A stretch of DNA of 52,668 bases, filler included, from Streblomastix strix (Eukaryota), in the NCBI GenBank assembly GCA_008636045.1. It is 2 parts of 2 records of this genome, joined end to end, with 100 filler letters (N's around TTAATTAATTAA, not from the genome) between each part and the next. Parts side by side here need not be neighbours in the genome. Positions count along the whole stretch, not along the records: positions 1 to 26,313 come from SNRW01000169.1; 1 more part is not named here. One strand, given 5' to 3'. Below, in pieces: positions 210-36,889 of this stretch. The notes under the pieces are model-generated. The model did not search any database. It saw only the letters and a program-made list of their open reading frames with translations, and was not told where the DNA came from. How positions within the stretch are numbered: position 1 is the stretch's first letter; each line of letters opens with the position of its first letter. Both the position numbers and the translations under genes were made by a program.

Positions 210-2600
210 ATATTATCATTCATTCCACCAAACAACACGTTAAAGTAGTTCGTTGAGAAATTTGGTACTATAGGTATAAAATTAACAAAAGGTGTATTTC
301 CACATGGATCATTCAATTATGATAACTATAAATAGGTGTTAGGACTAACAACTCCATTTACTAAAGATGATTTCTATGACAAATTTAATAATAAAAACAT
401 TAGTAATGAAGATTATGAATAATATGTTAATGATTTTACTAATTTTGAAAGCAGATGGGAGTATTTAAAGCATTATAATATCAGAGATGTTACTTGCATG
501 ATTAATCCAATCAATCATCTTATTCAAATTACATGGGAAGAGAAAGTCGATATGTTAGGATGTATGTCATTAGCTCAAATTGCTAGTTAAATTAGATACA
601 AGTATTGTTATGATAAATTCGATATCAATGCAAGTTATAACATAGTTAATGGATTTGAATAATTCGAGGTTACTTAATACTGGTGGAATAACAAAGTCAA
701 AGGATATATTAATCAAGATGAGTTTGCTAAGAGGAATACAACCAATAATGTTACTGAAGATGATATTGATTGGATTAGAGATAAAGTAGCAGGTGAAACA
801 TGCCATCTATGTCGCAACGAATTCACTAAAGAAAACAAGCCAACATTAGATAGAATTGATAATTCAATTGGTCACACAAAATAGAACAGTTAACTAGCTT
901 GTTAAATATGTAACACAGTTAAGGCCGATAAAGATAATGATATTATGAAATTAAAGATACAATTAATGAAATATGCTATCCATGAACATCTACCTATGAC
1001 CATTAATAATGAGTCTGTATATAATATGTTAAAGGAATGTATGTAAGGTGGACTGTCTAACGTGTATCACTAATGTAATTTGAAAGGTATCACATCTATT
1101 AACAAACTTAGATATAATCACGTTACTAAAACAATAACTTCATACGATAATTAGTACGTTGTTACTCACATCCTTGATTTAGATTTCAACTCTCTCTATC
1201 CAAGTGTGTTTAGTGGTATCTTCAACAAAAATAACCATTATACAAATAATCGAATATATCAAGCTGGTGGATTAACTAATTACTTCAAATGAACATCTAA
1301 TAATTCAAAATAGAAAGCTCGAGATATAATTATGAGCTCAGATCGATACACTGACAAAGGATAGCTATTCTGTGTAAAAATTAAAGGTCATATTGATGAA
1401 AAATGGATAAATTCACACATAAATTTAGCACCTATATGGAGGAAATTAACATATAACAATTCAATTGAATAAATAGGTGAATTTATGTACAATAAGATGA
1501 AATCATAGGGATTAACTGTTGATAAACCTACTACAAAACTAACTTCATTGCTATCAACGCACAATCAATATATGTTTCTCACTAGTTATATTTTATAGTT
1601 TTTGATTGACTATTGTAATTTAATTATTGATGACATAGATTCAATTGCTCTATTCGATAAACACCTTGGTTTTGAATCATTTGCCTGTACAATGATGTCT
1701 AAGAGATAGGATGCAATTAGTCAACATAATGACACAAAATCACTATACTACAAATAGATTGTAAATAGCGCTTTTGGAGGTGAGGGATAAAATAATGTTA
1801 AATTTGATAAGATATCCTTTAACAATGCTCGACAAGCATCACTCAAATAATTGAAACAAGATCATAAAGCAACAAGGAAATTAAGTATTAATATATACAA
1901 TTCTGATGGGGAAGTTATTGATGAAGCATAATATATGGTTAGTGAGTCACTTAGATAATTTAAGTGTAATAAGCCTCTTCAAGAAGCTGTATTTACATTG
2001 GACAATAGCAAGTTTTGGTATCTAAATTTTGTATACAACTTCCTCTATAAATGTATCGATATGGATAGGGTTCATTTCTGTAATAAAGATACTGACTCAA
2101 TGTATTTAGCTATTGCAGGATCAAAAATTGAAGGTTATAAATAAGGATTGAAGTATGCAATCAAAGACTAGGTGTTCTATGACCTGCACAATAAAGATTG
2201 ACTTCCATGGAATGATTGTACTGTTGCTGAAGAGAAGAAATTAATGGGTCTCACTACCGAGTCATAAGGAGAAAATATCGTTTGTCTAGCACCTAAATGT
2301 TATAGTGTATTCAATGGAAATGAACAAAATGATGGCATAGTTTCATTAGTGAATCGGATGAAAGGAGTAAGTGAAAAGAAGGCTAATTTAACAACTAATG
2401 ATTACATTAAATGCTTGAATGATGGATGTAACATCAATGTGACAACTAATAATTTACAGATGAAAATGGGTATAATGTCTATGATAACTATGGAAAAATC
2501 AGCACTTACTGGAATTCATAATAAGTTGGTTGTATTATCTAATGGATGTTGTGCTCCATTCATGTAAGGCATAAATGCTGATCATTACTTAATTGAGTGA
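210..2600 (+). pseudogene. Protein-primed family B DNA polymerase, C-terminal ~800 aa (5'-truncated copy 1 of the solo-pPolB element)
   Basis: One frame with TAA/TAG=Gln: KGVFPHG, ExoIII HYNIRDV, HNH insert, MQGGLS, motif A LDFNSLYPS, motif B KQIVNSAFG, motif C DTDS, LAPKCY, KGV. TGA at 2598-2600. Internal TGAs at 1290 and 2199 where copy 2 has Cys and Trp. Confidence 0.93.
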
Positions 2601-2699
2601 TTATATCACTATTTTTCATGATTAGTGTCATAGGATTTGTGGGCATAAATACCGTGATAAAAATAGTTGTCTATGTTAATAAAATACGCATCATTTTGT

Positions 2700-2882
2700 T
2701 GTATTGTCATTTGGCGCGGAGATTATAGGGTTTTGTAGATATAGTCATTTGACGTGGAGATTATGAGTACAATTTCCATGGCTGAAATGAGCCTTAGTGC
2801 TGATAGTGAATTGGCGCGGATATTATGATTACAAATAGCGCGGCAGAATTAGTGCACTGTGGTTCCGTCCATATATATTATT
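2700..2882. repeat. Remaining terminal inverted repeat of solo-pPolB copy 1
   Basis: TTGGCGCGGA..TTAT ... ACAAATAGCGCGGCAGAATT ... CTGTGGT ... TATATATTATT matches the TIR at 18240-18314. The TTGGCGCGGAGATTAT unit occurs three times (one degenerate). Confidence 0.85.
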
Positions 2883-2908
2883 ATCCATTGATTATGATAG
2901 AGAATTAT

Positions 2909-3458
2909 ATGCGTTTTTCGAAAAGAATGACAACAGCTCAGCAAAAAGAAATTGAAAGATATGTTCGTCGATATGATCCTACGATAAATGTAGATGACAC
3001 ATTTGTTGGTATACGTGGCTTATTAAATGCTGCTTCCAGAAGAGGATTGTAAGGTGATAAATTCACTAAAGCTATGATAGAATAAGTAATTGAAATGTAG
3101 ATGAGAGTTAATGCTGAGGATCAACTAATATAATAAAATTTTATCGATAATTCTTAAAGATATGATTTATATATAAAGGCAAGACTTGATTAAGCTTCTA
3201 TGGAAACTGCTCGTAGAACTCCTGTTATAACACAAGAACAAAATAATAATGAAATATTTAATAGTGGATCACAAAAACAAAAAGAAAAAGTAAATCAACA
3301 ATTAAGTTAAAGCTATCCTATAGAATTTTAAGAACTTCTAATTTTAAAATTAAGCTTACTCCACAGCTAGCAATCAGAACATAAACATAATCTCAATATA
3401 TCAACTAACATAAATGCTAATAGAAACCATATATATAATAAATATGAATGATTGTTTG
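2909..3458 (+). repeat. Internally deleted copy of the repeat at 22183-23238, with a coding fragment of unknown function
   Basis: 3015-3339 aligns with 22184-22508 (GLLNAAS...NSQRYDLYIKARLDQASM...FQELL) and 3340-3458 aligns with 23120-23238. Confidence 0.85.
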
Positions 3459-3899
3459 CCATAGTAATTTGTAAGTTGGATGGAGAAATTGTCCTACCTG
3501 TAGGTTGAAGGTTCTGGCTCCGATGATGAAGAAGAAGAAAATGAATTTGAAGATTTTTTATATCGAATCGAAAATTTAAGTGACTCTATTAATGATTGAA
3601 AATAAAATGTTTACGTTGAACAGTTTCTCGTTTTCCGTTCAGTATTTTATTTATGCTCAACTTTTTTTTGTTAAACGAACGGCAGAAAATAATTATGAGT
3701 ATTACAGAATTATGATAAAATAATGAAGAAGAATAATATTTAAGATGAATTTATTAAATAATATGAAAAAAATAAAAAATTGTTTCTGTTTTAAACGAAG
3801 GAAACGAAGCGACATGTTTTTCTTCTGGTAATTATTTTAAATTATAAAGGTTTGTTCTGAACGAAATAAATTATATAAAATTAAAAAAATAAATCATTA

Positions 3900-4510
3900 G
3901 TAAATTACATTTTAATAATAAAGAAAAACCAGTTGAAATCAAGCTTTAGCCAGTTCCTTCTCAAGAGCAAACATTTTATCAAAATCTTTCTTAGCACGAT
4001 CACGATTCGCAACTTGAAGCTGCATCATAAGCTGAGCTCAGTCCAAATTCATCTTCGTTGATTCAGTCATTGCTTTCAATTGGAGAATAAGCATAAAAGA
4101 ATGAAATCGAAAAGAAGAAGAAAATCGATAAATAGAATAAGCTAAATAATAATAATAATAATGAGTCAATTTCCAACTCAATATCATATTCATAGTAATT
4201 GAATGAAAATGCTCTTCTTTCTCTTCTCACTTCACCACACTCAAGATCTTTGCTTTACTCGCCATCTTCATCTCCAAATAGATTTACTTCTCTACTATCA
4301 AGCTTGCCATAATAAAATTATTATTATTAATAATAATAATAGGATAATATGAATTAATTGGAATAAGCTCGTTTTTTGCTTTCAATTGCATAGGTACAAA
4401 CATTTCCAAGATAAATTCGATTTATCCCAAAACATAATCCAATAATGCATATCATGAAGTTGTTTGCTTATCAGAACACAGCCAAACAAATTATTCCGAA
4501 GATCTGTTGA
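3900..4510 (+). CDS. Low-complexity Ser/Gln/Asn-rich hypothetical host ORF or exon
   Basis: About 200 codons open when TAA/TAG=Gln (KEKPVEIKLQPVPSQEQ...SPSSSPNRF...IIPKIC*). No family recognised, start uncertain. Confidence 0.45.
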
Positions 4511-5025
4511 TTTCTCTCTTATGTTTCATGTAAAACTTTTATATTTCAAATAAATGCAAAGGTGCATGAAATATTATTCATATCTGTCAACAACTATTTA
4601 ATTCATTCATTTATATACATTATTGCCATCGATTTTAAGATGTTTCATTCCAACGCAGTTTGCGCTGTTGTTTACTTGTAGGATGATGTTATTTGTATAG
4701 AATGCATTGTGCAATTTGTTGATCTATCCATAAATTGCAATATATTAATTAGGAATTGCTCCGTGCTCGGTTGCAACTATCATTAACTTATTTTCGAGTA
4801 CCACTCTATTAACGACTGCCGCAAACTAAATTACGACTCTTGCACATTGATTAAATAGTGTTGCAAATTGCCTAATAACTTCCATAGGCAGAATTATGAT
4901 AAGAGATAATCTTTCAAATTAATATTTTAACCATCTATATAGTACTTTGTGCTTATAATATAACCTTCCATACATATCAAATATTCTTTATTGTTTTAAT
5001 TTATTTTCTTTACATATTTTTTTAG

Positions 5026-6594
5026 AATGAATTAAGACAATCAATTACATTAAATATTCTAATATATTCAGTCCATTATTGAATCAAATACGATTAATGA
5101 TGAAGAGAAATAAAATAAAATAAAAGAAATATATAATGAATTGAAAAAGAAAGATCGTAATGAATTAAAAAATATATTTAACATTGATGCATTCAAGTTA
5201 ATTCAGAAATACATTTATGATTGTAGAAGTGGAATAGAGAAGATTCTCTTATATATTATTGAATTAGTTGCAAAAAAAGAAATATAGATGTATTAAGGAG
5301 ATACTGGTCCTATTTTCAATGATATTCAGAGATCTGGATTCATTAATAAGATTGAATAGCTGATCAAAGATAAAATAGAAGAAGAAAAGGAATAAAGTAA
5401 ATATTTAGTTGAAGTGGAACAATTAATAAGAATTTATATTCAAAAAATGAAAAGAGTATCTGATAATGAAATGATTAATTCTTATATATAAATTATAGAA
5501 AAGAATATAAATAATTTATTAAACATAATAAATAAATTAAAAGAAGAAAATAATAAAAGAAACAAGAATGAATAAGAAAATGAAGTAATGGAAAGAGAAA
5601 TGAAATAATCAGCTTAATTAATTAAAGTTATTTATTTAATTAGAAAGTAAGATCCGAATAGCCATTATATCGTGAATAGAATTCCAGATCAGATTATTAA
5701 GATTGTGAAAGAAAGAATATATCCACTTATTCATCTCAATTGCCCTCCAGATATCAATTGCTAATAATGTATCAATATTCCGCATTCTCCAGCTATAATA
5801 GATTTGAAATCTGAAGTGTTCTTTCTCTTTCTGAAGTTTAATATAATTAATAAGAATTCAAAGACATGTTAGTTAATGATCATAATATTATTCCACACCT
5901 TACTCATTCTCTTATTCAGTTTGCATCCTAATCTCAATTCAAAAAGAAAGCAAACTCAATTTAATAATTCAATTAATAATAATCAGAATCATCCTCTTCC
6001 ATTTCACTTATTACTTCCTCTCTTTATTTTCTTTTAAAACTAATCAAAAATAATAATAATCACAAAGAAGTGATTAATGTACCAAACACACTCCATTCGC
6101 TTTCTACTCTTACAAGATACAAACTCAATATTCATTTCAATTAACAATACAATGAATAAACATTATCAGTTAGAAGCAGCAGCAGAAGATGTCTTGATAA
6201 CATTCAATCTTGTGGTGATACATCTGTTCAATCAGAGCTTGTGAGTATTGGATATGCTAGAGTATTTACATTTGCATTTAGTACTGCTAGTGGTTCTGGA
6301 GAAGAAGAAGATTATGAGATCTATTATAGATTGAGTTAAATCTCATAATTCTTCAGTAATCTTAATAAAAGGAGAAATAATTTAGCAACATTCCCACCTC
6401 AACCTCTTCTTGCTCATAGATCAGATGAGCAAATAGAAGAAGAAGGTGCTAATGAAGAAATAGATTCATAATTAATTAATAATGGAATAGTATTTGGTAT
6501 ATAAATCAAGAATGAAGCAAGATAGGTCAAATGAGCAATACTTAACTGCTTCATAGAATAGGGCAATACAACACCATATTGGTATAATTAATGA
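5026..6594 (+). pseudogene. Member of an expanded hypothetical host protein family, frameshifted
   Basis: C-terminus QSELVSIGYARVFTFAFSTASGSGEEEDYEI...FPPQPLLAHRSDEQIEEEGANEEIDSQ resembles, from recall, a large Streblomastix multicopy family. Frameshift near 5820-5870 and in-frame TGA near 6532. Confidence 0.65.
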
Positions 6595-6849
6595 GTTTGA
6601 TTCATTTCACACATGTTTACTTGTTCAGTTGTACAATCCAATTATTTGAACATTTTTTTGATTATTTATTTTCATTTCTCTTTTTCTTTCTTTTACTTTT
6701 TCAATTATTTCATTTTCATTCTAATTCTTTATATTTATTTATTTGCAAATATTAAAAGAACTTTTTAATCATACACTTTCACTTTCAATGTATTAATAAG
6801 ATATTAAATAAAAAGCGAATAATGCAAATATTACAACTGCTATGAAAAT

Positions 6850-9790
6850 GAAACAATAATAAGTTCTATAATCAATTCTTTGTTAAAACTATTTCCAAAA
6901 TAGTTCTCAAAATCCAACAAGAAGTTCTTCAACTTTCTGTGATTCCTTTTAAGTCAGTTTCCATTTCAAGCTGATCATTGTTGCACATCTAATTGGTCCT
7001 GCTCTCTCGTATATATGAACTTTGATGGTCTTATATTGATCAGGATTTGAACTTATAATCATTAATACATTTAACACAAATATAACAGATTTTTTTTCTT
7101 AATTGAGTTGTTTAATTATCTCATATTATTAATATTCTTATCTATTTTCACTTTATTCTTGATTTATATTGATTATTATATTGATTATTTGTATGTTGAA
7201 TATTTTATTTGTTTATATAATTTCAAATAATCTATTTTTTATTTCATTTTTATTAATATTTAATTCGGATTATATTAATTATTTTAGTTTAATAATATCT
7301 TATTAATCTAATTTTAATTTATTTTCATATTCTTATGATATTTAATCAGTATTTGGAATAAATTAAGAAAATTAATCTTAATTTATTTCTGAAATACTAA
7401 AATCATATTTAATATCAACTTCATCTTTATAATCATAATTAATATTACATTTATCAATATCAATTTATGTGTTACTATCATTATTATTTATTAAAATGCA
7501 TTATTATTATATTTCATTTTCTTTAACCTTGTATCTTTTAATATTTAATTGTTTTATAATTATTTCTTGTTTATGAATATTGGTATTTAAATCATTAACT
7601 ATCGAGGATTATTAGAATATTGAATTAAAAAAGAAGTTTATGAAGAAGAAGATTAGGAAGAATTGTCTGATTAAGTACTGCTTTATAAAAAATGAGATTA
7701 ATAATGTGTTTAATACATATCATACTTATATTTATATTCTTAATTATATCTTATTATTAATATATTTAGTTATTAATCAATCAGATATGACTATTTCTTT
7801 GAGAATGTTGATTGATAAAATGTATATTTGTACATTTATTTTAATTATATTAATATCCAATACTTCATTCTATTCACTTTTATTCTAATTTTCATTTTAA
7901 ATCATATCTTTTTCTTCAGTTTCCTCATTAAAACACAATCTGCTAATTTAGTCATCTTTATCTACAGTAGACATTTAGAATACAGTTTTGCTCATTCTTT
8001 ATCCTTTCTTATTAACAACAGACACACATTCATCTCCAGTAAGTAAGAATATTTCTCCATTTTGGAAGAGAATGACTACTACTCCATTGGATAGAAAGGA
8101 TTATTGATGTTCCTTATCCTTGGATCATTCTTTCTATTTATTGTGATTGTTGGTTAATTTAGTTGATGTTGAAGTTGATGTTGTTATATTTTTTATTATT
8201 AATATTAAGATTGTTTTTATTAATCTAATTATTCTGCTTAATCTTATTATTATTATTATCCTGATATTTATGGAATTAATGAATCAATAACTGATGAAAC
8301 TTATTCTGGAAATTAATTTAAGCTTGATTTTCTTCTAATTTAAATTCCATATCCTTTTTTCAGTCTTAACTTCATCAAATGCTTATTATTATAAATTAGC
8401 ATTTTATTATAATATAATATTTCACTGTTTAAGGTGATGGATTAATTACATTTCCTTATGGACTATCAATTCTCTTTTCTTAATCTACAATATATTTCTC
8501 TTTCAATTATCTTCTTTCTCCTTCTTCTTCTTCATGAATATACCTCAGAGTATGTCTAACATCCATTGTATATCCATGAATCTATGTATTAGATGTTTAA
8601 TATGTGCGTTTGAGTTACAATATGTATCTATAGCCAAAATCTCACAGAATTGACAACATATAATCAATCTCAGTAATCAAGCTTCATCATCAAGTATTTA
8701 TCTTATTATTTATTGATCTGATTGTTAATCAAGTTAAAGGAAGAAATAACTGCTTTAAGAGAAGTCCTCATCGCAATCTGATTGAGTGAGAGTATCAACA
8801 TGTTATGCGAAGATATCTTCTTATGCGAAATATATCTTCAATATCTATATTATATTCTTGTGTTCTCCATTGCATATTTGTTTCTATTTTATTTATTCTT
8901 ATAATTGAATACCTGAGATATGATATATTCTGTGATTGTGAACATAATTATGAGAAAAGAGATGGAATTGTGTGATCCATCAATACTCTATAAATATATT
9001 ACATTATTATTTCATAATTTAATCTTCTTCAGTTCATCTTTTCTATTAAGTTAAGCTGCATATGCATCAGGAAAAGGTTTTGATCTTGGATTATATCTCA
9101 TATTGTATCTATCTGCAATAGCTCTGTGATATGTAACAGTAGATACAACAGAATCAAGTGTTTCAACAAGTACATTAAATGCATGATTATATCCATTACT
9201 AATCAATTATTCATCGTTACCTTACCATTCAATACGAGTTTATATACCATCTGATAAAGTTGCACTGAAAATACCAGCTCCATATTGTTATTTATTCTTC
9301 AATCCACTTTAAAGATCTCATTTGTTTACTAATGTCATAACTATCAGATTATATAAATGAATCTCTATTTGTTTAGAAAGTAGAAATAATAATTGATATA
9401 ATGAAGTTGGATTAACTAATGGTAATAATAATCCCAAAAGTCATATATCAATTTCTTAATCATTTATTATCAGTTTTTAAATCCTTTATTGTGATTAAGG
9501 AGAAGTTACCCTTCATTATAGTCTAGATTAAGTTATAAATTGCTTTGATGTATCTTATATAGATTTATATGGATCTATTTGGAGTGGTTGTATCTCATAA
9601 TTTCATTATTCTTATTCTACATCTTATTCTTCTATTATAGTTTATGATTCTGATTTAATAATTGATAATAATAATTCAGTAGATTATTATGATATTATTT
9701 ATTATTCTTTATTATCTTAACTTATTACAGACCCAGATTGAGGAGAATACAAATCCGACTCAATTAGAGATTTATTTGCTGAAACAATGG
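6850..9790 (-). pseudogene. Decayed large Gln/Asn-rich hypothetical host gene
   Basis: Long protein-like stretches on the minus strand (e.g. AFNVLVETLDSVVSTVTYHRAIADRYNMRYNPRSKPFPDAYAAQLNR) broken by several TGAs and shifts. No family recognised. Confidence 0.45.
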
Positions 9791-11998
9791 TGATACTTAT
9801 TTAAGAATATAACTCAAATATATAAAAATGTGCAAAGTATGTGATTTAAAAGTTTCATAATATACAAGTTTATTTGGCAATTGAATTTGTTTGAATGAAA
9901 TAAGATCAACATTTAAACAGATTATTGCCAAATATTGATTTAATCAATATCACCAAACTCTCATAAATCACATAAATTTGTTATAATAATTAATAAAGAA
10001 TAATTTAATCTCGAAAAGTTAATTGCTTAATTCATGAAATAAATTATATTTATAATTATTTTCATTAATCGAATATGAAAATCAATACTGCTCCAATTTC
10101 CTTGTTATTGATGAGATATATAACTACATCATTTTACTGAAGTAATAGTAAAATAATATTCATTTAATATTATACATATTAATAATCAATTAAACAAACC
10201 TCATTCACTTACTCATGTTAATGAATTAACTATTTACAAACATATGCAATATAGAGTTTTTTATATTAAGGTTCAGAAATATCATTTGTTAAGTATTGGA
10301 CAATTGCTAATATGTTTCCAAATGATGCATTAAGAACGACATCTGCAAATTTCTTCTCAATCCCTATTGAGATCAAATCATTAACTGCTTATTTTGCCGA
10401 AAATCACTTCAGTGGATTGATTATTTAGAATTAACTATTTCGCATGATCATGTAGATTAATTATATAATATTAATATAACTTTTTTTAAGAGTGATGTAT
10501 TTTGTGTGAAAAATAATATCTAAGCATATTTGAATCATAACTAAGATAAAAATTAAGAATGAAGATTATATTTTTTATATTTTTTCCGGCAACGGACCAT
10601 CATACTTGGTTTATCAGATAAATGTCTTATAACATATATATGATTATAAAGAAAACATTTATTCAACAATTAATTAGCGAATGAGCCAATATTTACATTT
10701 TTTTGGAATGATTAAATATAAAAGAATTCAAAAAATGCAATTTTTCGGGTAATTCATATTTTATTTTGACTAGTAAATGTGGCAATAGCAGTAAAAACGA
10801 TAATGGAAGCCAATTATTGTATAATCGTAATTTGGTTTGATAGATTCACACGAATTTTCCTAAATTGTATCCTCTCGCCCTCCCCGATGGGAGGCATTTG
10901 TGCTTATCATGCCAAGTTCGTTCAAAAGAACAGCAAAAATGCAAGAAGAGCAATCAATCCGAATGTCCTTTAAAAGTGAAATCGCAAAAAAATAGAAAAT
11001 CATGAAAATATCTGTAAATTGCAAAGTTTCATACGCTAGCCCAAAAGGATTACTTGATTCAGGGACTTTTTGTTGGCCAGTTTTTGGATCTATTACACAC
11101 ATTGTTGTTTTTTGTTGAAAATCAAAGATTTTGATCATCCCCACAGGTCATATTTATTTTTTTGGAATTTAAATCAATTTAATTAATTGTGTAAAAATAC
11201 GTTAAATATCATATATTTCAAATTAATTCCGAATGAAATAATATTTGAATTGTCCTAAATGTTTTGAAATTTGAAGAAATTGAAAATGAAAAACGAATTA
11301 AATGGTTATATAATCTATCTTTTAAATCATTTCAATTTTATTATATTTGCACATTAATATGTAAATATTAAATAAATTTTATATCAATTACTAATTTTTA
11401 AACTATCCATGTAAAATATTTTAAAAAATTTATATTGTTTAGAACTTTCAGAATGATCTAAAATTATATTTTAATCGAAATTATAGTTAATTTATAAAAT
11501 GTATAATAATATTTAAGAATTTAAATTGATAAATTAAAATATAATCATACTCGATTCTCTGGGTAGTCCCAGATAAAAATCTTTTCATAAAATTTTTTTA
11601 CACAGAATATAAAATAAAAATTTGTATACAATTTCAATATTTTGATATTTGAAACTATATAATAATAAACACATATAGTAAATACTCCCGAGAATGTAAT
11701 TGCTAAAGAAGAATATAAATGCATTGGATATGGAGAAACGAGTCATTTTTAATGCAAAAAAAATTTTATACAACAGTTTTTCCAGAAACTAATTGAATAA
11801 AAATTGAAAATATATATTTTAAATTTAAAAATTATTTTAAAATGTTATTATAATTAATTTCATATCACAAATACAAAAATATATTATTTATTTGAATTCA
11901 TTCCAAGATTTATAAAAATTTATTTGATTTAAAGGATGAAATTTATGCTGAAACTCACAATATAATTCATAAAAATCTATTGAAATTTTATTTAGATA

Positions 11999-12185
11999 AA
12001 TAATATATAGGGACTGTACCACAGGGCTTTAATTCTGCCGCGCTATTTGTACCCATAATCTCCGCGCCAAATGACTATTACAACTAAGGCTCAATTCAAC
12101 ATTGTGAGACATAAATGATATAGACAATTCTAAGCAAACATCCATGCCACAAATTAGCTCAATTCATCAATGTGATACACATTCA
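11999..12185. repeat. Left TIR of the solo-pPolB element
   Basis: AATAATATATAGGGACTGTACCACAGGGCTTTAATTCTGCCGCGCTATTTGTACCCATAATCTCCGCGCCAAATGAC... is the reverse complement of ~18127-18314 with few mismatches. Confidence 0.95.
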
Positions 12186-12206
12186 TCATAAAAAATAACA
12201 ACATCA

Positions 12207-15200
12207 TCAATCAATTTAGTAGTGATCTGCATTAATATCATACATGAATGGAGCGCAACATCCATTGGCTAATACAACCATTTTATTATGAATTCCTGTT
12301 AGCACTGACTTTTCCATACTAATCAAAGACATAATCCCAATTTTCATCTGTAAATTATTAGTTGTCACATTGATGTTACATCCATCATTCAAGCATTTAA
12401 TGTAGTCATTAGTTATTAGATTTGCCTTCTTTTGACTAACCCCTTTCATCCGATTCACTAATGAAACTATGTCATCATTTTGTTCATTTCTATTTTATAG
12501 ACTATAACATTTAGGTGCGAGACAAACGATATTTTCACCCTATGACTCAGTAGTTAAACATATTAATTTCTTCTCTTCAGCAACAGTACAATCATCCCAT
12601 GGCAACCATTCTTTATAGTGATTGCCATAGAACAGCTAGTCTTTGATTATATATACTTCAATCCTTATTTATAACCTTCAATTTTTGATCCTGCAATAGC
12701 TAAATACATTGAGTCAGTATCCATATTACAGAAATGAACTCTATCCGTATTAATACATTTATAGAGGAAGTTGTATACAAAATTTAGATACCAAAACTTG
12801 CTATTGTCTAAAGTAAATACAGCTTCTTGAAGGGGCTTATTACACTTAAATTATCTAGGTGACTCACTAACCATATATTATGCCTCTTCACTAAGGCTCC
12901 CATCAGGATTGTATATATCATCACTTAATTTCCTTGTTGCCTTATGACACTAGTTTAATTATTTGATTGAAGCATGTCGAGCATTATTAAATGATATCTT
13001 ATCAAACTTAGCTTAATTTTATCCTTCTCCTCCAAAAGCACTATTCAGAATTTGCTTGTAGTATAGCGATTTTGTGTCATTATGTTGGCTAATTGCATCC
13101 TATCTCTTAGCCATCATTGTACAGGCAAATGATTCAAAACCTAGATGTTTATCGAATAGGGCTATTGAATCAATGTCATCAATAATTAAATCGCAATAAT
13201 CAATCAAAAACCATAAAATGTAACTAGTGAAACACATAAATTAATTATGTGTTGATAGCAATGCCGTTAGTTTTGTAGTTGATTTGTCTACAGTTAACCC
13301 CTGTGATTTCATCTTATTGTACATAAATTCTCCAATCTATTCAACTGAATTATTGTATGTTAATTTCCTCCATATCGGTGCTAAATTTATGTGTGAATTT
13401 ATACATTTTTCATCAATATGACCTTTAATACGAACACAGAATAGCTATCCTTTGTCATTAAATTTATCATCACTCATAATTATATCGCGAGCTTTCTATT
13501 TTGAACTATTTGATGTGCACTTGAAAGAACTAGTTAATCTACCTGTTTGATATATTCGATTATTTGTATAAGGATTATTTTTGTTGAAGATACCACTAAA
13601 TACACTTGGATAGAGAGAGTTGAAATCTAAATCAAGGATATGAGTGATTATATGAGAAGAATCATATGATGTTATTGTTTTAGTTACATGATTGTATCTA
13701 AATTTATTAATGTGTATGATACCTTTCAAATTACATTAATGATACACATTACACAGTCCACCTTACATACATTCCTTTACCATATTATATACAGACTCAT
13801 TATTAATTGTCATAGGCAAATGTTCATGGATAGCATATTTCATTAATTGTATCTTTAACTTACTAATATCACTATCTTTATCAGCCTTAACTGTATTATA
13901 TATTTAACAAGCAAATTAGTAATTATATTTTGTATGACCAACTGAATTATCAATTTTATCTAATGTAGGTTTGTTTTCTTTAGTGAATTTGTTGCGGCAT
14001 AGATGACATGATTCACTAGCTACTTTATCCCTAATCCAATAGAAATCATCTTCTGTAACATTATTGGTTGTATCTCTTTTTGCATATTCATCTTGATTAA
14101 TATATCCTTTAACTTTGTTATTCCACCAGTATTAAGTAACCTCGAATTATTCAAATCCATTAACTATGTTATAACTTGCATTGATATCGAATTTTTCATA
14201 ACAGTACTTGTTTTTAATTTAACTAGCAATTTAAGCCAGTGGCATACATCCTAACATATCAACTTTCTCTTCCCATGTTATTTGAATTAATTGATTGATC
14301 GAGTTGACCATACATGTAACGTCCCTGATATTATAGTGCTTTAAATACTCCCATCTGTTTTCAAAATTAGTGAAATCATTAACGTATTATTCATAATCTT
14401 CATCACTAATATTCTTATTATTAAGCTTGCAATAGAAATCATCCTTAGTGAATGGAGTTGTTAGTCCTAGGACTAATTTATAGTTATCATAATTCAATGA
14501 ACCATGTGGAAATATACCCTTTGTTAATTTTATACCTATAGTACCAAATTTCTCAACGAATTACTTAAATGTGTTGTTTGGTGGAATGAATGATAATATA
14601 TCAATAAATCTCAAGTCACAATCATAATCTTAATGTGATACTACTGTTTATTTAACTTATGTTGTTGATCTCATGTATTAAATTTTAGTCTTATTTTTAA
14701 TTAGATGTTTGAGTAATAAATTCATATCAAACTTCTTAGAATTGAATCCTATAACTGATACTTGAGGTTTATATGGCTAATAGTTCTTGTCATTGATTTA
14801 TACTTCTGGTATGTTTGATTAATTAGCTTCGTTAACAGTAATAGCAAGTTCAAACAATTAACTTATCCATTATTCAATAAAATCAGTTCCATTTCGTAAA
14901 TCAAAATATAACGTTGTAATTTAATCATTTATTGTTGCAGCTGATGCTACTGATAATCGTTCTAATTAAGCAATTATATTGTCTTCATTAATTATGTTCT
15001 CTACTGTCTCAAAATCAAATGTAATGTAATTCAGAGTAGGTGTTAACTAATCTTATTAGCCTGTTGCTACTAATTTCTAGAGTAACTTATTATTTGATAT
15101 ATGTGGATAATAAGGTTTTGGTAAATGATTTAATTTAACTTATTTAGCTGTCTCAGGACCCTAACAATACTTCAAATGTCTCATAAGATCTCGCTTATAA

Positions 15201-17314
15201 TGTTAGTTCTTGGTATTAAATATCATCTAACAATTATTGGGACAGAGCTTTCCATTAATTACTTTATCAATATCACTAATAAACATTGCATGAATTTCAT
15301 CAACTAATGACAACGGAACTAATAATACATTAACAGTTTGATAGTCCTCGTCAATAATATGTTCGTCAAATTTACTGAATTACTCGGGTTGATTTTATCT
15401 TGTCTTCATCACCTTATCATCATATGTATAAGTAATTACATTTAGTTTGAATTTTTATTGATATTTTTCGAGATCAGTTACATAGTTGAAATCTTTATAT
15501 GATTCGAGTAGCTATTTATTAGCTTTACTTAATCTCTAGCTTGGGTTAATTTCATGGTATTAGAGAAACAGTTTAATAGCATCACTTATCCTACTCTTTG
15601 TTTCAATTATATCAGGGTGTAATGCAAATGATGCAACTAAAAACCAACAAATCTTTTAATCACATTCTATATTTCTAGTGATGCCTTCTTTATTGAAGTG
15701 TTAACATATTTTATCCATTTTAGTACCTGATGGTAATCTATAAACAACAATCAAAAACTAACATGGTGCTACCTTTAATGTTACTCAATCTTCATGAGTT
15801 GTGTCTTAAAAATCTGATAGTAAGTCGACAGCTTTCTATTTGAAATAGTCATTAGTCTGTTTATCTCGAACTACAGTGTTAGGTAAAGTCTTATAACTAT
15901 CATCAGCACTAGGTCCCGTGTGAGAGTAATGATATTCATCTAATGTTTGTTAGTGCTTATAGACTTATTTCTTTTTCTACCAGATAGACCCAAAACTAAT
16001 ATATACTTTATATGACTTAGCTTTCTCTAACTCATATACTTAATCAATTTTATCTTTCAGTTGCTATAAGTCATAGAAATGATTGTAATAGTATTAGATA
16101 TATGGTTCTTTATTGAGTATATCTTTTGACTTCATTAGCTCATCAGATAGTCCGCCAATATTATCTTCATTCTTTTCTTAGAATTTCTATCGTGCCAGAG
16201 CTAATGCAGCATAATAAGTTGATAAGTTCTAAGGTGTGAAGATAACGAATGCTTTCAAATTTAGTTCTCTAATTTTATTTAATTACTCAGTTTTTGATAT
16301 ACTTGGTTCATTAAAGTGATCCTTATGTAATCCATAATATGATTCATTAAGCTTTTTAACTCTTCTATTGAATTCTTTAGCACCTAATTTTGCATCTAAA
16401 TAGCTAAGAATTCTAAATGGTTTTTCACCCTATCGCTTATATCGTTAATTGATGATTAACTATTCTAATTATTCATAGAGCTTATGCCTACGCCATTTGC
16501 CTTAAATCACTTTGGCAGCATTAATTGACTATTTCATTAGTTATTACGCTAAATGTCTTCGATAGTGCTTTTGAATTAGTACAGCTGCTTTATTCTATTT
16601 CTCTAATCTATCCTTCAATTCTTATATCTCTTATTGATGTAACTATTCTTATTAATCTAATTCTTATTAATGTTTCAATTATTATTCAGCTAGTAATTGT
16701 TTATAATTTACATTATTCTCAATTGGCTATTCTTTAGGCTATTCAGTTTCATCATTCAAATCAAATTCTTCTTTCAATATATCATTTATTGTTTATAGTG
16801 ACTCTTGTAACTAATGTATCTAATTAGTGATTTATTGCTAAGCTCGTATCAATTATTGCATACGCTATCTTCTACCACTTTAATCAAATTTTTATTTATA
16901 AATAGCTCTGTATTTAACAGGATTGAATATATCATCATCAGTATTATCAGATTAATCCAATTCATTTATGATATCATCAATGTTTTTGACTAATTGAGGT
17001 TATTGTTTACCATTATTCAACTATTATTACTATTCATCAACTGGTTCTATTAATAGTTGCAATTAGAGTTATTATTATTATTCAACTTAATCTAATTATT
17101 ATTATTATTAACCATTTCTTTCAGCAACAATCTGATTTACAAAAGCTACAATTTCAGTTGTAACAGTTATATGACCTGTATAATGTAATCGGTATAATTC
17201 ATTAGTTAACATGTTTCTTAATTCAACTGATGTATAATTAGATAAATATTGAACTTATAATTGGTCTAGTGAATTTTAAATCTATTATTTATTCATTCTG
17301 TATTTCTCTGCCAT
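12207..17314 (-). pseudogene. Full-length pPolB polyprotein (~1700 aa): coiled-coil/IQ N-terminus, probable terminal-protein region, OTU-like Cys protease, Zn finger, 3'-5' exonuclease, HNH insert, polymerase
   Basis: ATG at 17314 (MAEKYRMNK). Motifs: KICWFLVASFALHP...HAMFISD, CPNNC..HLKYC, ExoI ITFDFET, ExoII GFNSKKFD, ExoIII HYNIRDV, LDFNSLYPS, KQILNSAFG, DTDS. TGA at 12207-12209. Frameshifts near 17070, 16095 and 12650, internal TGA near 15787. Confidence 0.93.
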
Positions 17315-18052
17315 TTTATGAAAAGATAAAAAACTGAATAAACTTCTTTTGCTAGATTTTGGCATAATTTGATATTTTTAATTTTTAATAAATGACATAG
17401 GAATTAAAGTCTTTATTAATATAAATACCATCAATCAAATCAGTTAAAGAATTGCGTTAATTTTTAAGAAAGAATTATGAATTATTATCAACAGTAAGAG
17501 CACTCTCATTGAATAAATATATTACAATACCAGAATTTAAATTTTTACATAAAAATAATCAAATAAATGTATATCATGTTTCATAACATCGATTATACCG
17601 TTGTAAACAATATGAATTATCACCATAAGCGATCAATTAGTTAAGTGATTAGTTGGAAAGCATTAATGAAAATTCTGATAGCAAATCCGTTAACAATTGT
17701 AAAAATCCTTTGAGTACTGACTCTTCGAGCAATTGATTATTTATTATTTTTATCTATAATATTTTTAATTATTGATACGTAAAGTATACCCATATTTGAA
17801 ATTATTTGAAAAATTTTAGTAATTTATTTCATAATATCTTAATACATAACCCCACATCACTATCCTAATTAGTATACATATTAGTGAAGTATATAGTGAT
17901 ATAGACTATACATATAAGTAATTGATATAATTAGTCTATTAGTTAGTTCAGAAATTAGTAGTTAAAATTGTTAAATTTTTCATAAATTTTGAAAATGAGA
18001 TGTTAAATTTTCAAATCATTTTGAATATTTTTGAATAATTTTTAAATATTAA

Positions 18053-18314
18053 TCCATATCATAAGTGTATCACATTGATGAATTGAGTTAATTTGTGGCA
18101 TGGATGTTTGAATAGACTTATCCACATCATAAGTGCATCACATTGCTGAATTGAGCTAATTTGTGGCATGGATGTTTGCTTAGAATTGTCTATATCATTT
18201 ATGTATCACATTGTTGAATTGAGCCTTAGTTGTAATAGTCATTTGGCGCGGAGATTATGGGTACAAATAGCGCGGCAGAATTAAAGCCCTGTGGTACAAC
18301 CCCTATATATTATT
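18053..18314. repeat. Right TIR plus 68-bp subterminal tandem repeats
   Basis: Units start at 18053, 18121 and 18189 (TC.A.ATCAT...TG.ATCACATTG.TGAATTGAG), then the terminal segment ends ...CCCCTATATATTATT. Confidence 0.93.
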
Positions 18315-21300
18315 TCAATTTCTCAATTATTAATGATTCATCTTCTAATTCATTAATATACAATTCATCTATATTAATTGTAGAAATTTAATTCATTAAA
18401 GTATTTATATTATTTTAGTATTACAAAAAATTAAATAAATTTTATTAAATATATTTCTTTTAATTTTAATTTTTGAATATCTTTTATAATTATAAATTTC
18501 ATTGATTCTTTAATTTATTAAAAAAATTTTATTAAAAAAATATGAATTAATCATTTTTAAATATTTCTATAGTTTCTTTTATTTTTAAAATTATTTACTA
18601 CCATTTTGTTTATTTTGAAATCTCTCATTGATTAATTTTATAAAAAATATTTAATTTTTTTTGTGTTTAAAGTAAATATTTAAATTTTACTTCTTCATAT
18701 TAAATATTTAAATTCTTAAATTTAAAAAATTTATTTTACAATAATTAAATAATTCTTTGAAAAAAAATTAATTAAAAAAATATTAATTCAAAAATCATTT
18801 TTTTCGCTCAACTATCCTTCAATTTACCTATACTCTTAATTTACATTAGATATTTTTAAAATTAGAAGAAATTAGTTAATAAGAAATTAAATTTTGTTTT
18901 AATAAAAAAAATTTTAATATTAACTAATTTAATTATAAACTTTTTTTTTTATAAAATTACCAAAATTGAAAAAAATATTTTAGTATCAATTCTCATTCAT
19001 TTTAATCTTATTGATGAATCGGGCGAAAGTCACAATCGTGTCAGAAATCCACTTCTCATGACTTTTGCTCTATCTGGCCATGCATTAACCACTTCACATG
19101 ACTTCAACTGTTTTTATATAAATGCATTTTAAATACAATCGTAGACAGTGACAAAGTCCTTCTTAAGGATTTCAGAAAGAAATGATAAATATTTCTTTTC
19201 AATTTATCCATTTCCAGGGTTTCAGAAGAGAATTGTAATGGTGAATAGTTGAATCTGAGATAATTTAAATAATTTAATTAATTTTATTATACAAATTGTC
19301 TATTAAAATTTTTTTAATAAATAATTTTCATACATTTTCTCTTCTACTGCAGTTTCTATTATCCTACTCATCTTCATATGGAAGATCGATATCCTGTTTA
19401 AAATTTTAAATTATCGCAATTTCTTTCAATTAAATATTTGTAATTTAATTAATCAATATAAAGAATTTTTTTTGATTAAGGGTATTATCATAAATTAATC
19501 AGTAAATATTTTTCATTTCTTTTATAATAATCTCTTTTTAATACTTTTATATTGTCAATTTAATTTTATTTTGAATCAATTGCAATAAATCTCGAAGAAG
19601 AAAGTGGTGATCCTTTAGGTTACACTTCGACTTTATTTTTACTATTTCTTTAATTCCAAGAAAAATTTGAGCGAAACACTTAAGTAAATTATATTTGAAC
19701 TGATCTTGGAGCAAATTTGTAAGTTATAGCAATTGATCTAACAGTTCATAAAATATTTCTATTTTAATAAAAAATTAAAATAATTTTAAAATTTGATTTA
19801 ATTTTAAATTCAATTCAATATTTCATGAGTGTTCAATAAGAGTAGCTTCAAGAACGCATTTCCCAAATAGTGCCAATGTGTGCACCTTACGTATTTCAGA
19901 GTCAGAGAAACTTTCTGAATCGGAATATTCTTCATCGAATAGAAAGATTATTCAATTATTAGGATATATATATTTTGTTTATAATTTTCTTTAACACTAA
20001 AATAATTTTCTTCTGAATAAAAATATATCTTCTTATTTATTATAAATTTATTTTTTCATCTATATCTATACGAAACTCTATTCATAAATTTTTATTATAA
20101 TAAAATTTTATAGATTCTATATTCATATTTTCATAATTTATTATCAAATTCTAACTTTACGAAACATTACATATACTTAGATAAGCGTAAATACTTCCCC
20201 AAATATAAGAAATTAATTCTAAAATTAATTCAAAATAAATATAATAATGAAAATAAAAAATATTTTAGTAATTTAATAATTAATGAAATTTATTTAGTTA
20301 TTCATTTATTTATTATTAAAACAAAATAATTAAAAATTTTAATTTAAATATTTTATTTCTATGATTCAAATTTTTTAAAAAATTAATTGATTTATGATTA
20401 AAAACTAATTAAAATAAAATATTTTTAATTCAAATATTTAAATTTTTAAAGAATAATATAAAATTTTAACTTAAAGCATAACAAATAAATCTTTTTTGAA
20501 AAATATTTATTATTTCGGCTTATTGAATTGTTTCAGTTACTTTTGTTGTTGATATGACAATTCCATTATAAAAAATTATAAGAAATAGTAAAATATGTAA
20601 AAATGCAACTTTATATTTCAAAAAATTCCTATTCTATTTCTTTGAGTTGCCTAATCGACTCCATTTTATTACACTTATTTAATTAGTTCTTACTATCTAT
20701 TTTGCATCCTTTTATGAAAAAGAATTCGTTAAGCGATGAACTATATTGAAATATGTTTCTAATCTCATTTTCATTATAGTTAGTACTATTCAATGTCTTT
20801 TATTCTAAAATTTATCCAATTTTATTTGATATTGAATAAGCATTTATTTGAATATCAACAACTGCAAAATTTTTTCTATTATCTATTTTTTTATTTGTTT
20901 CTACATTCTTCATATTTATTTTATTAATATATTATTTGGAAACTAAATAATTCGAAGTTTTGAATCCATGCTCGATTAAATTATTTGGAGTGAATGTCTT
21001 TAAAATCGAATTAACTCAATCATTTTCATGATGGATATTTTAAATTAAGCTATTTTAGAAATAATATGTACCTCCACATCTTTGCAAGTTCTTCATCTTG
21101 TTTTCTGATGGCTTATTAAATGAAATTTTCTATTTATTCCATTGTGTACTTAGACAAATGAAAATATGTAGGTTTTTCAGAAGGTTTATCCATGTTTTCC
21201 ATATTTTTCTTTCGTCTACGATAAACAAATTAGAATATATAGATGATTATATTCAATGACACTAAAATCACATCAAAACAATTCCATAATTACTTAATTA

Positions 21301-21899: not shown

Positions 21900-23238
21900 T
21901 CTAATTAGATATTTTAATAATATGCATCTGAGGATATTACTGGAAATTTCCTAGAAATGGACGCAAAATAGGAGTATCGTCTAGAGAACTTTAATTATAA
22001 TACTCAGTTTTATAATATCAAGTTTCGAGATCAATGAATTTCACCGATGAAGCTTTGTTCACTATATGATTTGCTGCATTTTTGGACTATCCATCATAAA
22101 AATCTAATGCGCAAGTTAATTATATGAGTAAATTTAGAGATAACACGATTCTCTTCAGTTACCAAAGCAGTTATGAGTTAAATGTGGCTTATTAAATGCT
22201 GCTTCCAGTAGAGAAGTATATGGTGCTAAATTTACTATAGCTAAAGCAGAATGAGTTATTGAAATGTAAATAGGAGTAACTGTTGAGGGTCAACTAATAT
22301 AATAAAAATTTTTCGATAATTCTTAAAGATATGATTTATATATAAAGGCAAGACTTGATTAAGCGTCTATGGATACTGCACGTAGAACTCCGGCTATAAA
22401 ACAAGAACAAATTGATAATGAAATATTGAATGGTGGTTCACAAAAATAAAAAGAAAAAGTAAATTAACAATTAAGTTAAAGCAATCCTATATAATTTTAA
22501 GAACTTCTTCCATGAAGTGCTGTATTCGAAAGAGATACGATAACAAAAACCTCTAAGTGAAATAGTTGCATCTGAAAATTTGAATACAATCTATGTTATA
22601 GGCGCATTAGACTGGGGTCGACTACCATTCAATGATACATATGGAAGACCACCGTTCGTAACTCATCCAACTGGTTACAAATACAGTTAGTTTGGAAATC
22701 TGTAAGCGTAAATGAAAGTAGTTTACTAAGGAGTTGGTAAAATTGGTGTTACAGAAAAGCGAAAAACGAATAAAAATTATATACCAATATCGTAATTATA
22801 AGGTATGTCAGCTGCGTAAGAGAATTTAGCGAAGAAGTTTAGGAAAGGTAACAAGAAGTAAAATAAGAAGAGAGTTTATTTATTTCAATTAATTAAACTA
22901 TTTATTACAATTTATAATTTATAACAATAAGCAAGATTAAATCACAAATTGCTATGAATCTCATGAAAAACAAAACTTGATATAGATCTAACATTTAATA
23001 TAATATGTATGCAATTTTTAAATATTATGATAAAATAAAATAAATTTTTAAAAATGAAATAATAATATAATATAATAAATGAGATAATTAAAAATTATTA
23101 TTGTTTTAAAAAAAATACTAAATTTAAAATTAAGCGTATTCTATAGCTAGTTATCAGAACATAACCATAGTCTCAATATATCAGCTAACATAAATGTTAA
23201 TAGTAACCATATATATAATAAATATGAATAATTGTTTG
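21900..23238 (+). mobile_element. Decayed repeat carrying an intronless hypothetical gene, possibly Maverick-derived
   Basis: Shares two blocks with 2909-3458. Basic C-terminus (GMSAAQENLAKKFRKGNKK). Its right end abuts the truncated kinase. Left boundary uncertain. Confidence 0.5.
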
Positions 23239-23239
23239 C

Positions 23240-26313: not shown

Positions 26314-26413
26314 NNNNNNNNNNNNNNNNNNNNNNNNNNNNNNNNNNNNNNNNNNNNTTAATTAATTAANNNNNNNNNNNNNNNNNNNNNNNNNNNNNNN
26401 NNNNNNNNNNNNN
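26314..26413. other. Artificial contig-joining spacer
   Basis: 44 N + TTAATTAATTAA (six-frame stop linker) + 44 N = exactly 100 bp. Confidence 0.97.
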
Positions 26414-27459
26414 CTCTTGAGAATACTAATATTGTTTATCTATTATCTGAAAGCGGAGAAGTTAATAAGACTCTTGAATATCAGAGATATCATATAAGAT
26501 TTGAAAAAATGTAACACGCTGCTATCGATGATAAGATACCACAAAATTCAATTAGTTAAACTTGGAACAGCTAAATTTGATGTATTAGAGATATAAAACG
26601 TATGTTTCAATATTGAAAATGAAGAAGCAATAATTAGTATGATTCAATAACAAAAAATAATCAACTTTCCTACATAAGTATTTGGAACGTAATCATCAAG
26701 CTTTCCATTTAGTGGTTTTAGAGAAACGAGTTGTGCTATGTAAAGTATTATGCCATTCTCTAACATAAAGGCATTATTTATGACATTCACTATTCCCTAA
26801 TATCCAACATAATTTTTCCCTGCATTATTCACAGGATCAATGCTAATTATTGATTAGAATAACATTATCTCATAACCATATAAATCATTAAATTTAGCAA
26901 TTAATTTATAAATGTTTGATTTTTTCGTTGATTGAGACGTTGTTAGTGCCCAATCAGATCTATATCATTCACTTCCATTCGAGAAAATGAATTTTGATGA
27001 AAGAAAACATTAATATGGATTGATAGATATCAACGACTAATATAAAACTGCTAACATATTCTATTTAGCAACATTGCATAGTGGAAACAAAGCTATTAGA
27101 ACACTTTATTCTAACAAATATATGCTTGCATGGAAATTGGCTACTGATGATTCATTTATGCGAGGATATAACTCCTCAAAGCTATGTTCTAGAACTAATA
27201 TATAAGTGATTATGTAAGGAAATTTGACTAAAGGAATTATTGACACAACTAATATAAATCCATCATAAAACTAAAATGATACAAATAATTTATTGGTTCT
27301 AGAGCATATCCTGATCCTACAAAAGCATCTATTATTCCAATGAAGTATTACTTGAGTGATGTGTTTGTTAGAATTATATTTGATGAGAGTTGAATGCTAT
27401 AAATACTAAATATTGATGTTATTGGAGAGCTTGCTAATGGAGCTATTAAACTTCAATGA
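26414..27459 (+). pseudogene. Major-capsid-like protein type 2, C-terminal half
   Basis: INFPTQ, FSNIKALFMTF, YMLAWKLATDDSFMRGYNSSK, DVFVRIIFD..VIGEL. Homologous to 48938-50898. Frameshifts and TGAs present. Confidence 0.7.
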
Positions 27460-27482
27460 GCAGCTAAAAATAAATTTATTTT

Positions 27483-27608
27483 TCATCTACATATCTTTGA
27501 TTCGCAGGCATATTTGATTGCTGCTTCCCAAATAGTCTTAAAGATTGTGCGCCAGTTAATGTTTAATTAATCTAGAGCGTAAATGATTGTTCCATTAAAT
27601 CCATATAA
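27483..27608 (-). pseudogene. Conserved ~41-aa micro-ORF (start codon lost)
   Basis: GFNGTIIYALDQLNINWRTIFKTIWEAAIKYACESKICR*, homologous to 48795-48920. Confidence 0.75.
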
Positions 27609-27639
27609 TTTGTTTATTTTTTAAATTGTCATTCGCTAG

Positions 27640-28540
27640 CAATATTATTAATAAAATAAGTATATTTAATTTATACACTTAAAATAGCTGGTAATAATAT
27701 AAAAGAGTTAGAATTAATAATAATTTAGCCATATTAATTGGTTATGTAATCTAGACATCTATTGATATTATATGATGCAGTCATTAAATTTTATATAATT
27801 ATTGGTCCAGTAAATTTTGGTATAAAATCGTCATCAACAGTTCCTATTATGACGAGAATATCAGTTGACCCACCTAATGTAGTCCAATGAAGATATAAGC
27901 TAAAATAAGCGATGTCACTATTATGCATCACTAAAAAACCTTAGCTTTGCTCGACTACATTGTCACTCACATGAAATATACCACTTTTTTGATGTTAATG
28001 GTGGTATACGTTATTCATTAAATATTAATTAACTACTATCTTTATCGAAATACTATCCTCTATTAATATTATTAACAAGATTCATTTTTTATATCTAGAA
28101 TGTTCATTTAGTTCTACATCCTGTAGTTGTATTTGTTAATTTTTGCTTTAGTACAAAGTAAAATCATCGTACGCATTTGTTCTTACCTTTGGCAGAAAAT
28201 CATCCATATTCGATGTATCTCCATTAGCTAATAGAATTTAGCTATTTGTTCCACTTTATTTAATGAATTTACCAGCTATGAAAAGTTATAAAAATGAATT
28301 TACTCCAAGAATAAATTAATCAATATGTAAATTAACAAAATTGAAAGCATTCCTAAAGAATTAGCATAAAAAATTAAAGTACTTTATTATTTCATTATCA
28401 ATAGCTTATAATAATGTATTATATTCTTTAATTTATTCTTATTGATCTTCTTATTATTTTATTAATTTAATTACCTATTCTTACTATATAGATTATTTTT
28501 CTTCATCAATCATATCTAAATCACTTAATTATTAATCCAT
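27640..28540 (-). pseudogene. Fibre-like protein
   Basis: AGKFIKQSGTNSQILLANGDTSNMDDFLPK...LYLHWTTLGGSTDILVIIGTVDDDFIP. Homologous to 47966-48775 and shares the KFIK.GG..ILL motif with 51259-52290. Confidence 0.6.
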
Positions 28541-32239: not shown

Positions 32240-32398
32240 GTGAAAAAAACATTAATAAAAAGCGATTTTTGGCACGCATAAATGGCGTGGTTAATGAATA
32301 ATTTTAAATTGTTCCGAGTGTTCCGAGTATTCTGAGTCAAATAGGTTCTAAAAAAAATGCCATTCAATCCGTCAAATAGTAGAAACATGAAAAATTAA
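32240..32398 (-). repeat. Intergenic repeat M1 (reverse orientation)
   Basis: TTGGCACGCATAAATGG...GTTCCGAGTGTTCCGAGTATTCTGAGTCAAA...CATGAAAAATTAA is an inverted match to 32810-32970. Confidence 0.85.
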
Positions 32399-32459
32399 AA
32401 CAATTTACTCAAATCCAAAATTATATATATATAAATTTTATTTTTATTAAAAATAAACG

Positions 32460-32792
32460 ATGGTGATTGGTATCTATCATAAAATCAAATAATTTGTTTA
32501 AAAAGTTGGGAAAGGTCTTTATTTGGCTAATGATAATATTTATAAACAGTTCATAAAACCATTTGCTAAACCAAAACTTGCGGCTTTCGGTCGTGTAGGC
32601 TAAACATCAGGTAAAGATTTAGTTGTTGCGAGTTCATTTCTTGATTATGGTTATGGTACAGATAATAATTGTTAAATTAGTTAAGATTTTGATATGTTAA
32701 GAATCGAAGAATATTTAAGATAAAAATTGCCTTTAGATATATAGAATAGAAGTAAATAATATAGAAACAATGATAAATAAAATAATTAATGA
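32460..32792 (+). CDS. 110-aa protein with N-terminal basic amphipathic helix (candidate membrane-penetration protein)
   Basis: Intact under the Gln code: MVIGIYHKIKQFVQKVGKGLYLANDNIYKQFIKPFAKP...*. Confidence 0.7.
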
Positions 32793-32809
32793 AAAAGAAA
32801 ATAGTTAAC

Positions 32810-32970
32810 TTAATTTTTCATGCTTCGAATATCTTTCGCATTGACTGACATTTTTCATAGAATTCGTTTGACTTGGAACACTCGGAACACTCGGAACTCT
32901 CAAAAATCACTCAATAACCACTTAATTTTCTCGTGCCAATTTCAATGAAATAATTGATGTTTTATGACTC
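32810..32970 (+). repeat. Intergenic repeat M2 (forward)
   Basis: TTAATTTTTCATG...TTTGACTTGGAACACTCGGAACACTCGGAACTCTCAAAA...TTTTCTCGTGCCAA...TGATGTTTTATGACTC. Confidence 0.85.
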
Positions 32971-33038
32971 TGTGTTTCATTAATCAACGTTATTATGTTT
33001 CATTAAGTATTTATTTAACTGTTTTGTTTTTGTATTGA

Positions 33039-34755: not shown

Positions 34756-34869
34756 AACAATTAAGTCATAAATTGAGAATATATATATATAACTTACACC
34801 TAATCATTAATGTAGTTAATTAAATAATTTATTAGATATATGAATTATTTTTTATTTATTTTATAATAA

Positions 34870-36270: not shown

Positions 36271-36302
36271 ACAGTATTTTAATTTATTTTTGTTGAAATA
36301 AA

Positions 36303-36870: not shown

Positions 36871-36889
36871 AATGTTGATCTTTTGCGTA

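Follow-up and report, generated by a model that had tools for sequence, protein, structure and literature searches.

A degenerate copy of an apparently polymerase-only, polinton-related element in the oxymonad Streblomastix strix

Polintons are defined by the possession of both a polymerase and an integrase. Those described from the Metamonada (Trichomonas vaginalis and Streblomastix strix; PMC10120064) measure 13–25 kb and encode an integrase, an ATPase and a capsid protein. Once a capsid had been recognised in Trichomonas elements, all polintons were argued to be endogenous viruses (PMC10120064), and the conversion of a polinton into a capsid-less replicon is a proposed route to cytoplasmic linear plasmids (PMC11161782). 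An example of such plasmids is the fungal pGKL1 type, a capsid-less polinton derivative with terminal inverted repeats (TIRs) and a polymerase of the TP-vOTU-EXO-PALM layout (PMC11161782). TIR-bounded units with a protein-primed polymerase (pPolB) as the main product are also present in the Bidnaviridae and in the Drosophila Vesanto virus, whose segments of 3.3–5.8 kb carry common terminal repeats (10.1101/2020.10.16.342956); the vOTU domain of bidnavirids is described as inactivated (PMC11161782). A PacI-like insertion was reported for the pPolB2 of nematodes and oomycetes, and the HNH-type domains of pPolB2 were judged likely functional (10.1101/2023.08.22.554363). No polymerase-only nuclear polinton was found in the literature searched, which included PMC6431247 and 10.64898/2026.10.13.758929, with subscription papers mostly outside its scope.

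The window, meaning the whole stretch of 52,668 nucleotides analysed here, consists of two S. strix contigs with an N linker (26314–26413) between them. It is AT-rich and contains no long frames in the standard code, and long frames appear when TGA is the only stop; in S. strix, an oxymonad from the termite gut, TAA and TAG encode glutamine, also in its endogenous viruses (PMC10120064). The best protein matches of the window are named S. strix gene models. The element under study occupies 11999–18314 (6,316 bp) and is referred to as copy 1. The preliminary description had placed TIRs of about 185 bp at its ends, and such inverted arms were recovered, 183 nt long and 97% identical, with a 33-nt TIR probe matching twice within the window and never in 100 shuffles. 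The features of both contigs are collected in Table 1.

Table 1. Positions of the features discussed, counted along the window.
Feature	Position	Strand	Basis or remark
Second copy (copy 2), 5′-truncated, two in-frame TGAs	210–2882	+	Gene end at 2598–2600, then subfamily-variant TIR
TIR, polymerase 3′ end	11998–12180	+	Terminus 5′-AATAATATATAGGG
pPolB gene, code 6, about 1,700 codons, broken in copy 1	12207–17314	-	phi29 polymerase structural match
2-bp frameshift, short AT run	12649–12653	-	Sequence and contig depth
PolA, PolB and PolC (DTDS) motifs, present in copy 1	12709–13633	-	39-row alignment
PacI-like HNH/zinc insertion	13895–14008	-	C-x2-C, D-R, H, N, C-x2-C-N
vOTU-like protease motifs	15290–15650	-	Alignment columns, by motif only
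In-frame TGA	15785–15787	-	Rare in other copies
Alpha/beta domain after long coiled-coil N-terminus	15799–16144	-	Position and secondary structure
5′ region	17315–18038	unassigned	Multicopy together with the remainder of the unit
68-bp subterminal tandem repeats	18039–18223	+	Overlap the inner TIR
TIR, polymerase 5′ end	18133–18315	-	Summed contig depth falls to zero beyond
Capsid gene	33039–34755		Second contig
KilA-N-like frame	near 35330		Second contig, by eye
ATPase gene	36685–37668		Second contig
Integrase remnant	44476–45638		Second contig, integrase profile

The gene content of the element is minimal. Outside the polymerase there is no room for a capsid or ATPase gene except for a 114-aa orphan ORF on the plus strand (17392–17736), inside the 5′ region, which has no exact record and no match among 1.84 billion representatives and, being without a homolog, was left out of the gene count. 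The absence of integrase, ATPase and capsid genes noted in the preliminary description agrees with the searches inside the element by tblastn with the proteins of relatives and by an integrase profile. Within the window, the profile, built from 60 related integrases, matched only the integrase remnant of the other contig, and the capsid and ATPase proteins of relatives matched on that contig only. Despite the 97% identity of its TIRs, no target-site duplication was found at copy 1, where lengths of 2–12 at offsets from -3 to +7 yielded only 2-bp AT matches. The reading of these as a duplicated TA in a target of sequence AATATT is disfavoured, because the AGTAGT termini of relatives align with AATAAT; no empty site was observed.

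The single long minus-strand frame of the element opens only with TAA and TAG read as glutamine, and 112 of the 140 glutamine codons counted in copy 1 are TAA or TAG, like those of the host nucleus. The single gene of about 1,700 aa proposed earlier thus stands as a frame, but it is interrupted by a TGA and a frameshift. In run X1, possibly the source sample itself, a different base stands at position 15786 in 1864 of the 1886 depth units, and the two extra bases near 12651 are absent from 648 of 1083. Because of these two lesions copy 1 is a pseudogene and is itself incapable of activity. Two residues of its HNH motif are also altered, each in this row only (1 of 39). Readthrough of TGA as a sense codon was rejected, because the TGA sites differ among copies and the other copies have sense codons at these positions.

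The AlphaFold model of the 1,043-residue polymerase core (mean pLDDT 81) has phi29 polymerase as its best structural match in the PDB (E 1.9e-12), and in the BFVD it matches bidnavirus-like (top), adintovirus and adenovirus polymerases; on these matches the polymerase, as modelled, is of the protein-primed type. The window protein itself has no Pfam polymerase match, and PF03175 matches the polymerase of a relative (L009). Conservation of the motifs was scored in an alignment of 39 polymerase rows. The catalytic residues of ExoI–III and PolA–C are kept in 37–39 of these rows, as are the residues of the HNH/zinc insertion, which aligns weakly with PacI at D-R and C-x2-C-N. The vOTU-like motifs lie upstream of the exonuclease, with the Cys in 25 rows (13 gapped) and the His in 36. 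In the model of the N-terminal 509 residues, coiled coils precede an alpha/beta domain. Polintons have a terminal-protein domain of the PRD1-like type. The alpha/beta domain appears to sit in the place assigned to the terminal protein in PMC11161782; fold searches with the N-terminal model returned coiled-coil matches only, none of them to a terminal protein. An IQ calmodulin-binding motif in the coiled-coil N-terminus (16530–16600) scores 20.8 bits, barely over the Pfam cut-off, and may be due to chance.

The second related copy with its own TIR, also claimed in the preliminary description, shares 88% identity with copy 1 over 2,422 nt and ends in a right TIR 82–85% identical to that of copy 1, but it begins abruptly within the polymerase gene and has no left TIR. 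Its two TGAs differ from that of copy 1. The comparison of the two copies yielded a dN/dS of 0.146 (dN 0.063, dS 0.43), which shows purifying selection on the polymerase at the level of a two-copy sequence comparison. The outer side of the copy-2 TIR adjoins a decayed coding stretch that is itself repeated (2883–3459 and 22179–23239), and in the gene model P0100 a different coding stretch lies beyond the TIR. Other repeats may be frequent insertion sites for the element.

Several lines of evidence describe the element as one member of a family. At least 75% identity to the gene model P0089 is shared by 55 of the 67 S. strix gene models examined, a count in which two models come from the copy-1 contig and fragments of one element may count twice. 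Near-complete models are P0089, P0093, P0001 and P0097, and many others are fragments. In run X1, the contig depth, which is summed over contigs and does not equal copy number, is 59–201 in the outer flanks, 445–1237 in the partly repeated bins directly left of the TIR, and 1,340–11,754 in every bin of 12055–18274, the 5′ region included. In X3, an independent run from a different study, all element bins are covered, only a few-fold over the depth of the flanks. The depth falls to zero just past 18314, and the terminal motif runs into differing flanks at five loose ends of single or few contigs, at copy 2 and at both ends of copy 1. The polymerase 3′ end directly joins the TIR in five places: in copy 1, in copy 2, in a 1,702-nt X2 contig, in an X1/X2 joint of 12206–18107, and in P0100, a model that extends across a TIR with 88% similarity to that of copy 2. 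Two TIR subfamilies of the same layout are represented. Only one copy shows the complete 5′ end. One X2 contig diverges from the reference sequence at 17386, so that upstream of this point the sequence may differ in some copies. The 5′ half of the polymerase (14854–17341) is covered about half as deep as the 3′ half (12366–14231), which may reflect faster divergence or a large number of copies truncated at the 5′ end, as copy 2 is. P0089 sits on a unit-sized contig of 6,375 bp, which proves little, because the N50 of the assembly is 5.18 kb (PMC10703272). The polymerase-only architecture looks real and family-wide, and the data support a nuclear, multicopy element, as proposed in the preliminary description, that is integrated at many sites; the contig data do not show copies of 15–25 kb with integrase and capsid genes as the majority. 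The TIR probe is absent from the viral contigs and the prokaryote genome contigs. The window polymerase has no match in the viral contigs, where an alignment search gave 438 pattern matches and none confirmed, and the translated TIR of P0100 as the query gave no match among seven candidates.

Relatives of the polymerase indicate where such a unit could come from. A scan of 19 of 64 metagenome parts recovered 17 loci with the same polymerase clade, none of them with the TIR family of the element. These gut-metagenome relatives include full polintons, in which the polymerase adjoins the left TIR. An A32-type ATPase gene lies downstream of it in L009 and L012, a capsid gene homologous to that of the second contig in L003 and L009, and an integrase-like gene in L002; the L002 integrase as the query reached no named S. 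strix protein. The conserved left end, about 180–260 bp upstream of the polymerase, is present in all six loci where both are visible (L007, L009, L010, L011, L013 and L017). The terminus AGTAGTATAG is common to eight loci, as AGTAGTATAGGG or AGTAGTATAGA, and AATAATATATAGGG of copy 1 corresponds to the AGTAGTATAGGG termini in A-rich form, starting with AA where the termini of relatives start with AG. In the FastTree phylogeny, the eight family rows group in one tight clade whose end branches are short; its sister is a second S. strix family. The polymerase at 39090–44130 belongs to a distant lineage, about 41% identical to its nearest relatives and on a long branch (FastTree flags long-branch joins); it is not physically linked to the element, because the window consists of two contigs with an N linker. 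One related polinton (L013, 8686–13994) is inserted beside eukaryotic housekeeping genes (Rho/Ras, Rad23-like and WD40) in the standard code, and its similarity to L009 stops 0.5 kb past the polymerase.

Since the relatives carry the polymerase terminally in full polintons, the element is likely, judged by sequence, a Metamonada-type polinton reduced to its replication gene. In the simplest history, all genes downstream of the terminal polymerase would have been lost, and the remainder would then have spread under selection. The element shares with the Metamonada polintons the polymerase clade, the vOTU, Exo, HNH and Pol motifs, the TIR length, a short terminal tandem repeat, nuclear multicopy insertion and the host code. 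Its TIRs fall within the 100–1500 bp of polintons, its family B polymerase is of the protein-primed type, and the vOTU Cys and His precede the exonuclease, by motif only. It differs in its length of 6.3 kb, in the terminal repeat (AAT instead of AGT) and, at the one copy available, in the absence of the 5–8-bp duplication. It would function like the replication module of a polinton, yet it is outside the polinton family as defined, being short and without integrase, capsid and duplication. Like the cytoplasmic linear plasmids, it would be a capsid-less polinton derivative; unlike them, it has a single gene, many chromosomal copies and no transcription genes of its own, and it is known from integrated junctions. 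The earlier comparison with organellar plasmids is misleading, because the element has a vOTU motif, a polymerase clade and termini of polinton type. Moreover, mitochondrial hallmark genes are reported to be missing from oxymonads (PMC10703272). Mitochondrial linear plasmids are organellar and have a pPolB without vOTU, whereas the element has vOTU motifs and the glutamine codon usage of the host nucleus.

The explanation tentatively favoured here, with a chance a little short of even, is that copy 1 is the dead representative of a multicopy element, reduced to the polymerase and descended from polintons, whose replication is autonomous and protein-primed and whose insertion depends on the integrase of full-size polintons. 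The conserved motifs and the purifying selection point to self-replication by the family; the self-replicator of the preliminary description would thus survive at this level, and not in copy 1. The polymerase gene would be transcribed and translated by the host in the host code, and the terminal-protein domain would prime at the AATAAT ends. Short tandem repeats at a terminus are well suited to protein priming. The vOTU domain would release the terminal protein, and strand-displacement synthesis would lead to a free linear DNA of 6.3 kb. Insertion and any packaging would be supplied in trans, with the integrase coming from full-size polintons of the same genome. A possible helper is represented by the integrase remnant of the second contig, and 820 capsid-gene hits are listed for S. 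strix in the supplement of PMC10120064. The metagenome loci, the viral and prokaryote collections and the 18 loose ends listed out of 150 revealed no helper that shares the TIR. The helper-integrase step is weakened by the missing duplication at copy 1 and by the AA terminus, which leave room for HNH insertion with host repair.

It is rather unlikely that the element is instead the replication segment of a bi- or multipartite polinton-like virus, with capsid, ATPase and integrase on further segments between the same TIRs. Its size and layout resemble the segments of the Vesanto virus, and on the second contig a repeat of a second family (family 2, about 170 bp) occurs five times among polinton genes (32257–46251). 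With only 53–72% similarity, these copies could represent decayed ends nested in one another, or else a modular genome. Two related repeats in inverted orientation flank the second polymerase: the one at its 3′ end begins with AGTAG, and its homolog (136/207, z 7.3) lies a short way upstream of the polymerase. Against a segmented genome, the 18 listed loose ends of 150 show no other gene inward of the TIR: three are consistent with the 3′ end of the polymerase or with the TIR variant of copy 2, and the rest are flanks or unplaced. By a rough estimate, the TIR depth need not greatly exceed two per polymerase, and the close relatives L009 and L002 are unsegmented. Segmented pPolB viruses of the bidnavirid or Vesanto type are characterised by ssDNA virions and an inactivated vOTU domain. 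The element also differs from them in being integrated in a protist, and its family retains the vOTU Cys and His that bidnavirids have inactivated.

More doubtful is a self-sufficient single-gene transposon, in which the PacI-like HNH domain cuts an AT-rich target and host repair joins the linear copy with no duplication. Such insertion agrees with the non-AG terminus and the missing duplication of copy 1, with the conservation of the PacI-aligned motif, and with the published view of such domains as likely functional. The missing duplication concerns one copy, copy 2 is an example of rearranged flanks, and the PDB matches of the HNH domain are weak (E 0.2–0.27). The domain is equally conserved in relatives within full polintons that have their own integrase, and it therefore has some general role. 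It is very improbable that the element arose by deletion from a full polinton and was only passively multiplied, with no autonomous life. In favour of this reading, both window copies are pseudogenes, one of them truncated, and many gene models are fragments, but the ends are precise with differing flanks, purifying selection extends over a dS of 0.43 with both copies ending in the polymerase-TIR join, and near-complete models and two TIR subfamilies of one layout exist.

It is possible, with a chance somewhat below even, either that one polyprotein primes, copies and inserts its own 6.3-kb DNA without integrase or duplication, or that host polintons are split into separately integrating TIR segments. 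A selected, multicopy, polymerase-only family would exemplify, in the nucleus, the step from a polinton to a capsid-less replicon. Surveys based on capsid genes are blind to such a family, which also provides a clean system for asking about the role of the HNH domain in pPolB2.

The second contig contains further repeated units. The decayed second polymerase, together with its flanking repeats (38860–44217), may be a polymerase-only unit of 5.4 kb, independent of the element and of greater age. One gene block occurs twice in diverged form (66%), at 26584–28402 and 47840–51000, and each copy faces a family-2 repeat; the repeated gene at 48955–49650 has no match to the L003 capsid (E 0.2). The tail of P0080, a polymerase of a different family, matches this gene block.
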